Source of the DNA: Escherichia phage DN1
Sequence record: MF374379.1
DNA: 41,559 nucleotides
Strand: one strand, 5' to 3'
The notes below the pieces were generated by a model that saw only the letters and a list, made by a program, of their open reading frames with translations, did no database searches and was not told the DNA's origin. Both the position numbers and the translations under genes were made by a program. Within the stretch, counting starts at the first letter, position 1. Every line of letters starts with the position of its first letter. Of the stretch, positions 21,029 through 22,095 are shown piece after piece.

Positions 21029-21292
21029 ATGACTAACGCGCTTGCGGGTAAACAACCGAAGAATGCGACACTGACGGCGCTGGCAGGGCTTTCCACGGCG
21101 AAAAATAAATTACCGTATTTTGCGGAAAATGATGCCGCCAGCCTGACTGAACTGACTCAGGTTGGCAGGGATATTCTGGCAAAAAATTCCGTTGCAGATG
21201 TTCTTGAATACCTTGGGGCCGGTGAGAATTCTAAGCGGAGATCGCCTAGTGATTTTAAACTATTGCTGGCAGCATTCTTGAGTCCAATATAA
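21029..21292 (+). pseudogene. Remnant of the stf C-terminal frame (orf-314): 66 native codons then junction-derived read-through
   Basis: MTNALAGKQPKNATLTALAGLSTAKNKLPYFAENDAASLTELTQVGRDILAKNSVADVLEYLGAGENS is tail-fiber sequence; after GAATTC at 21226..21231 the frame reads antisense to ea59 and stops at 21292. Confidence 0.75.
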
Positions 21293-22095
21293 AAGTATTG
21301 TGTACCTTTTGCTGGGTCAGGTTGTTCTTTAGGAGGAGTAAAAGGATCAAATGCACTAAACGAAACTGAAACAAGCGATCGAAAATATCCCTTTGGGATT
21401 CTTGACTCGATAAGTCTATTATTTTCAGAGAAAAAATATTCATTGTTTTCTGGGTTGGTGATTGCACCAATCATTCCATTCAAAATTGTTGTTTTACCAC
21501 ACCCATTCCGCCCGATAAAAGCATGAATGTTCGTGCTGGGCATAGAATTAACCGTCACCTCAAAAGGTATAGTTAAATCACTGAATCCGGGAGCACTTTT
21601 TCTATTAAATGAAAAGTGGAAATCTGACAATTCTGGCAAACCATTTAACACACGTGCGAACTGTCCATGAATTTCTGAAAGAGTTACCCCTCTAAGTAAT
21701 GAGGTGTTAAGGACGCTTTCATTTTCAATGTCGGCTAATCGATTTGGCCATACTACTAAATCCTGAATAGCTTTAAGAAGGTTATGTTTAAAACCATCGC
21801 TTAATTTGCTGAGATTAACATAGTAGTCAATGCTTTCACCTAAGGAAAAAAACATTTCAGGGAGTTGACTGAATTTTTTATCTATTAATGAATAAGTGCT
21901 TACTTCTTCTTTTTGACCTACAAAACCAATTTTAACATTTCCGATATCGCATTTTTCACCATGCTCATCAAAGACAGTAAGATAAAACATTGTAACAAAG
22001 GAATAGTCATTCCAACCATCTGCTCGTAGGAATGCCTTATTTTTTTCTACTGCAGGAATATACCCGCCTCTTTCAATAACACTAAACTCCAACAT
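21157..22095 (-). pseudogene. ea59: N-terminal ~290-codon fragment of the lambda b-region P-loop ATPase Ea59, truncated at the deletion junction
   Basis: Minus-strand ORF with Walker A GRNGCGKTT; native sequence spans 22095 down to ~21227; the last ~22 codons (21157..21226) are out-of-context read-through into stf-derived DNA. Confidence 0.75.

Follow-up and report, generated by a model that had tools for sequence, protein, structure and literature searches.

The deletion joint of Escherichia phage DN1 is the ΔEcoRI-B deletion of the lambda DE3 prophage, in a genome that looks like an aberrantly excised DE3-bio transducing phage

Introduction

Spontaneous deletions of the b region are common in bacteriophage lambda, and in the 1970s cycling on restricting hosts was used to strip EcoRI targets from the phage; EcoRI-promoted recombination has been demonstrated in vivo. 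A deletion of EcoRI fragment B belongs to the lambda cloning-vector lineages (λgt-type phages, srIλ1-2 and D69), and we take it to be the same ΔEcoRI-B joint as the one analyzed here. The lambda vector papers of 1974 are said to be those of Murray & Murray, of Thomas, Cameron & Davis and of Rambach & Tiollais. D69, the parent of DE3, was reportedly described by Mizusawa & Ward in 1982, and Studier & Moffatt are said to have derived DE3 from it in 1986. The DE3 prophage, the source of T7 RNA polymerase in BL21(DE3), is generally held to be incapable of excision. Its genotype, as distributed with BL21(DE3)-type strains, has been given as λ sBamHIo ΔEcoRI-B int::(lacI::PlacUV5::T7 gene1) i21 Δnin5 (PMC11760895), and many other papers also quote a DE3 genotype with ΔEcoRI-B. 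One further report mentions unexplained DNA processing at the left end of DE3 and speculates on partial DE3 excision (PMC10250240).

Here we describe a stretch of 41,559 nucleotides deposited as Escherichia phage DN1 (MF374379.1), hereafter called the window, in which an original prediction, made from the sequence alone, had placed a deletion junction that fuses the lambda side-tail-fiber frame to an antisense fragment of ea59. What the prediction had located is the ΔEcoRI-B deletion that E. coli BL21(DE3) carries in its lambda DE3 prophage, a feature already known, named in genotypes and annotated in GenBank. Judged from its gene content and joints, the complete window has the appearance of a viable 'DE3-bio' transducing phage that arose by aberrant excision.

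Results

The deletion joint superimposes two lambda EcoRI sites

When the whole window was aligned to lambda (NC_001416) by megablast, four colinear blocks were obtained (Table 1), and direct reading of the sequence places the deletion joint at a single GAATTC, the hexamer in which the first two blocks meet. In a base-by-base walk, identity with lambda at the same coordinate runs to window 21231 and identity at an offset of +4878 reaches leftward to 21226. The two lambda segments share just the hexamer, and no base has been inserted or lost at the joint. Lambda has EcoRI sites at 21226, 26104, 31747, 39168 and 44972, and the DNA missing at the joint is exactly 4,878 bp, which is the distance from site 1 to site 2 and corresponds to lambda EcoRI fragment B. 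G+C content falls from 0.574 to 0.371 at the joint. A random deletion would have both ends in register on two of the five EcoRI sites of lambda with a probability of the order of 1e-8; the coincidence of both deletion ends with EcoRI sites is not chance.

The alignment and the walk agree with the original prediction that lambda tail-fiber sequence ends at the GAATTC at 21226..21231, that the break would fall at lambda 21226|26105 and that the interval between the first two lambda EcoRI sites has been lost. The distance of 869 nt from the start of Ea59 to the site, which had been predicted to be the same in lambda, is exact by lambda coordinates, since ea59 runs from 26973 to 25396 on the minus strand and 26973-26104 equals 22095-21226. 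The predicted list of deleted genes was right for tfa, ea47, ea31 and the 3' half of ea59, and was incomplete in that it omitted the 3' three quarters of orf-314 (the C-terminal part of stf), which the deletion also removes.

Table 1. Coordinates of the lambda-related blocks, the joint and the neighboring features in the window.
Feature	Window position	Strand	Lambda position or description
Megablast block	1-21231		lambda 1-21231
Megablast block	21226-22864		lambda 26104-27742
Megablast block	34451-36364		lambda 38591-40501
Megablast block	36355-41559		lambda 43298-48502
orf-401 (stf N-terminal part)	19644..20855	+	same ORF as lambda 19650..20855
Chimeric orf-314'	21029..21292	+	87 aa; orf-314 residues 1-68 plus 19 new residues from antisense ea59
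Chimeric Ea59'	21157..22095	-	312 aa; Ea59 residues 1-290 (21226-22095) plus 22 new residues
Ea59' 22-residue tail	21157-21225, stop codon included	-	read from antisense stf
Retained EcoRI site GAATTC	21226..21231	.	lambda 21226-21231 and 26104-26109 superimposed
Right end of b region up to att core	21232..22845	.	lambda 26110-27723; 99.94% to lambda, 100% to DE3 as far as the prophage record extends
Walker A GRNGCGKT, Ea59 residues 195-202	21490-21513	-	only ATPase motif left
att core GCTTTTTTATACTAA	22846..22860	.	lambda core 27724-27738; bacterial B' arm next (attR-type joint)

Two chimeric ORFs cross the joint

The mechanical ORF list contains both of the chimeric ORFs that had been proposed, 21029..21292 on the plus strand and 21157..22095 on the minus strand. 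The first, orf-314', reads ..VLEYLGAGENS and then KRRSPSDFKLLLAAFLSPI, so that 68 of the 314 residues of lambda orf-314 precede the divergence; the Collar and fiber-repeat domains of orf-314 are missing. The orf-314 frame is open from 20819, and stf is split into orf-401 and orf-314 in the window, as it is in the lambda reference. We take this split to be the frameshift of laboratory lambda that Hendrix & Duda reportedly described in 1992, and the HK630 annotation likewise attributes the stf split to a laboratory-lambda frameshift. Because stf was already split in this way, the loss of the orf-314 domains and of tfa costs nothing further.

The minus-strand ORF, Ea59', begins MLEFSVIERGG... and keeps 290 of the 525 native Ea59 residues. 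It had been called a P-loop ATPase from the sequence, in agreement with its Walker A motif and with Pfam AAA_23/ABC_tran matches over residues 171-217. Full-length Ea59 also matches AAA_21 (residues 360-430) and AAA_15 (residues 310-428), both of which are lost from the chimera. Since the C-terminal ATPase half and the partner protein Ea31 are absent, Ea59' should be inactive. Scans for promoter and terminator consensus sequences in the surroundings of the joint and in the lambda DNA that was deleted gave matches at or below shuffle expectation, a result that says nothing about expression of the chimeric ORFs. Both ORFs would be functionless, passive by-products of the deletion.

The same two ORFs are annotated in the DE3 record EU078592, where 41109..41372 is labeled 'orf-314; C-terminal extended due to deletion' and 41237..42175 (minus) is labeled 'ea59; C-terminal extended due to deletion'; in both cases the DE3 coordinates exceed those of the window by exactly 20,080. 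Automated pipelines have named the ORFs at the joint 'hypothetical protein', 'P-loop NTPase' and 'ATP-binding cassette domain-containing protein', and the joint serves as a reminder that the two ORFs named in this manner here are artefacts.

The window is a derivative of DE3

Identity between the window and phage DE3 (EU078592 / NC_042057) is 100% across the joint and extends over 31.5 kb in all. In a full comparison, window 1-22845 corresponds to DE3 20081-42925 and window 32886-41559 to DE3 11407-20080, with 0 differences. All markers of the DE3 genotype except the int insertion are present. Loss of BamHI site 1 (sBamHI°) results from a change of GGATCC to GGATAC at window 5508, a silent C-to-A substitution in gene C/nu3; imm21 is represented by window 32886-34450, which is 100% identical to phage 21/DE3; and nin5 by the absence of lambda 40502-43297, with a 10-bp overlap at the joint. 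HindIII site 6 has also been lost through substitutions at 37198 and 37200 (AAGCTT to ATATCT, K86Y in Q). EcoRI sites 4 and 5 are kept (window 35031 and 38029), and an extra EcoRI site at 29064 is brought by uvrB. The exception is the int::lacI-PlacUV5-T7 gene 1 marker: nothing in the window corresponds to DE3 1-11406, which comprises attL, the cassette and xis through N. The window derives from DE3 but is not DE3 itself.

At window 36355-36364 the nin5 joint consists of a 10-bp direct repeat, CACGAACCTG, found in lambda at 40492-40501 and 43298-43307, and is of the spontaneous, microhomology type, unlike the ΔEcoRI-B joint, which lies at restriction sites. The S gene (window 38243-38566) is wild-type lambda and has no Sam7 amber; the 'ind1 Sam7' of the commonly quoted DE3 genotype is supported neither by the window nor by the identical DE3 record, and the immunity is that of phage 21. 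Relative to NC_001416, the window and DE3 both lack 1 bp at 138, have 1 extra bp at 14266 (between L and K) and show an A-to-G substitution at 20661 in orf-401. All lambda structural proteins are unchanged despite the differences at these three positions.

The joint is a laboratory lineage marker

The distribution of the joint was examined with a 304-bp probe centered on it in 5,426 complete E. coli genomes. A full-length match was found in only 19, all of them B-strain laboratory derivatives and most of them named DE3 (BL21(DE3), C41, C43, BLR, Rosetta2, Nico21, BL21 Star, BAP1 and others). All 88 remaining genomes that matched the probe did so over one half only, the match breaking off at its positions 150-155, the hexamer. 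Of 50,697 phage records only the two of DE3 span the joint, and an exact 36-nt string across the joint had no match in IMG/VR or in JGI metagenome contigs. Given this absence from IMG/VR and JGI and the restriction to DE3-type laboratory strains, the joint is a laboratory lineage marker and not a natural variant; it would be a scar of genetic engineering in the 1970s. The 36-nt string identifies DE3-derived DNA and can be used as a practical tag for contamination and provenance. Among other public records, MW057783.1 ('Campylobacter phage CJLB-4'; 48,361 bp and thus lambda-sized) is 99.9% identical to lambda over a 1.6-kb aligned stretch, which suggests contamination or mislabeling.

Ea59 and Ea31 resemble a Septu-like pair

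According to PADLOC profiles that match end to end, Ea59 and Ea31 (lambda 24509-26973) form a Septu-like pair of ATPase and HNH nuclease in the b region. Lambda Ea59 matches the PtuA profile PDLC00282 over residues 4-522 (5e-184) and the PDC-M01A profile (4e-201), and Ea31, which NCBI names 'HNH endonuclease', matches PDC-M01B (6e-113); ea47 had no match to the PADLOC defense profiles. A sequence search of the PDB gave retron-associated PtuA ATPases as the nearest solved structures to Ea59, at a weak E value of about 1e-4, and gave no match for Ea31. The window has neither a full-length PtuA-type ATPase, its copy of Ea59 ending at residue 290, nor the adjacent nuclease, Ea31 lying wholly inside the deleted fragment. 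That ΔEcoRI-B phages are without the Ea59/Ea31 pair should be borne in mind when such phages are used in defense-system assays.

The window corresponds to a circularized segment of the BL21(DE3) chromosome

The ends of the window are the lambda cos ends. Divergence from lambda begins after lambda 27742, beyond which the window continues as BL21(DE3) chromosome, and the host block between the att core and 32890 comprises ybhB, bioA, bioBFCD, uvrB, ybhK, the Moco riboswitch and ~110 codons from the start of moaA. In a comparison over 10,045 bp, this block is free of differences from BL21(DE3) and shows 56 mismatches (99.44% identity) with K-12 MG1655, and the BL21(DE3) chromosome contains window 20100-32890 letter for letter. 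Because there are 0 mismatches in the one comparison and 56 in the other, the host DNA is assigned to a B-strain DE3 lysogen and not to a classical K-12 λ bio phage. A λ bio ancestor of D69/DE3 dating from K-12 work was also considered and is ruled out by the same counts, the host block being of the B type.

Within the host DNA, the molybdenum-cofactor riboswitch lies at window 32430-32574 and the truncated moaA at 32562-32890, the moaA frame continuing into phage 21 DNA (ORF 32481..32993). The insert also contains three Chi sites (GCTGGTGG), at window 25997 (+), 30591 (+) and 23242 (-); lambda has none. Host DNA from the same region is found in one other phage record, ON470605.1 (Escherichia phage vB_EcoP-720R6), whose first 7.9 kb is ybhB-bio-uvrB DNA 96.6% identical to the window and may be either another att-adjacent carry-over or the result of a mis-set prophage boundary.

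At the far end of the host block, identity with BL21(DE3) ends at 32890 and identity with DE3 begins at 32886, giving a 5-bp microhomology, GTGGC, that is common to moaA (chromosome 801361-801365) and to DE3 11407-11411, 16 nt upstream of the start codon of N21. The whole window equals positions 759802-801365 of BL21(DE3) (NC_012971.2), circularized at GTGGC and linearized at cos: 801365-759802+1 is 41,564, and subtraction of the 5 shared bases gives 41,559, the length of the window. The GTGGC joint occurs in none of the 5,426 complete E. coli genomes and in no IMG/VR contig.

At 85.7% of the length of lambda, the genome is of a size that can be packaged. Its head, tail and lysis genes are all intact, and the head and tail proteins are identical to those of lambda; int, xis, red, gam, cIII, N and the lacI-PlacUV5-T7 gene 1 cassette are absent from the window. 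The nin5 deletion allows growth without N, and Chi helps phages deleted for red and gam on a recA+ recBCD+ host. Since nin5 would compensate for the loss of N and Chi would help a phage of this constitution, the genome looks viable. With its intact head, tail and lysis genes it may form plaques and transduce bio and uvrB.

Discussion

The joint is almost certainly the product of a loss of EcoRI fragment B and ligation of the AATT ends, inherited by the window unchanged from DE3. Lambda DNA would have been cut by EcoRI at sites 1 and 2 (21226 and 26104), the 4,878-bp B fragment would have been lost, and the compatible AATT ends would have been ligated to regenerate one GAATTC. The lost DNA, from the b region, would have been dispensable: it held tfa, ea47, ea31, the 3' end of orf-314/stf and the 3' 45% of ea59. 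The deletion would have brought a gain in cloning and packaging room and fewer EcoRI targets, and would then have passed unchanged from the DE3 prophage of BL21(DE3) to the window. No feature of the sequence speaks against this origin. We infer that the deletion step was made in vitro with purified EcoRI and ligase; the sequence of the joint is equally compatible with cutting and ligation in vitro and with restriction and ligation in vivo. There is a slight chance, then, that an EcoRI-restricting host cut sites 1 and 2, that host ligase rejoined the ends and that the resistant or shorter genome was selected, since one regenerated GAATTC and nothing else fits this origin equally well and both restricting-host cycling and EcoRI-promoted recombination provide precedents. 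The classical B-fragment deletions are, however, described as products of digestion and ligation in vitro.

An origin through illegitimate recombination, in which a spontaneous b-region deletion fell on EcoRI sites by coincidence, is very improbable. The frequency of such deletions in lambda speaks for it, and the 6 shared bases might have acted as a microhomology comparable to the 5 bp and 10 bp at the other joints of the window, but the in-register coincidence on two of the five EcoRI sites would be as rare as estimated above, and the joint is found in no independent natural lambdoid phage among E. coli genomes, phage records, IMG/VR and JGI contigs. Moreover, BamHI site 1 and HindIII site 6 were deliberately removed in the same genome, and the genotype names the deletion after a restriction fragment (PMC11760895). 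Joints at short repeats can also be artefacts, and nothing further favors the idea that an assembly error or a chimeric read brought two lambda regions together at a repeated hexamer; given that 2 phage records and 19 complete genomes assembled independently have the same joint, and that assemblers are not misled by repeats as short as 6 bp, this explanation can for practical purposes be set aside.

For the genome that carries the ΔEcoRI-B joint, we favor, with some reserve, the view that it is a real, packageable phage from BL21(DE3) that was formed when illegitimate recombination at GTGGC looped out 759802-801365, and for which ΔEcoRI-B and nin5 mattered twice. Recombination between moaA and the point 16 nt upstream of N21 would leave behind int through N along with the lacI-T7 RNA polymerase cassette, and the looped-out product would gain ybhB, bioABFCD, uvrB, ybhK and moaA'. 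If this is true, ΔEcoRI-B and nin5 together make it possible to package 10 kb of host DNA, the phage can grow without N on account of nin5, and the carrier genome is apparently an escape product of a supposedly locked-in DE3 prophage. The arrangement is that of a λ bio phage, in that phage DNA of the att-int side has given way to host DNA that adjoins the attR side and the novel joint lies in a short microhomology. In the literature searched we found no description of a plaque-forming DE3 derivative that carries host DNA.

Compared with known systems, the window differs from lambda itself in the Septu-like pair of PtuA and HNH nuclease, both members of which are present in lambda, whereas the window lacks Ea31 and half of the ATPase. 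The spontaneous b-region deletions (b2, b221, b519, b527 and b538) resemble the ΔEcoRI-B deletion in removing non-essential DNA between J and att and in shortening the genome, but their ends are not at restriction sites, while the joint in the window lies at two EcoRI sites to the base. λgt-type phages, Murray's srIλ1-2 deletion phages and D69 have by definition the same joint with one site regenerated; the link of such vectors without EcoRI fragment B to DE3 is a historical one. DE3 has the joint, the chimeric ORFs, sBamHI°, i21 and Δnin5 in common with the window, which lacks DE3 positions 1-11406 and carries 10 kb of BL21(DE3) chromosome instead. Finally, in classical λ bio phages, as in the window, DNA from the right of attλ (ybhB, bioABFCD, uvrB and so on) replaces phage DNA from att rightward, the joint lies in a short microhomology, the phage has lost red and gam by deletion, and the host insert contains Chi. 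The window is unlike them in that its source is an engineered B-strain prophage with a disrupted int, and in that the substitution extends through N on the phage side and to moaA on the host side, the loss of N being tolerable only because of nin5.
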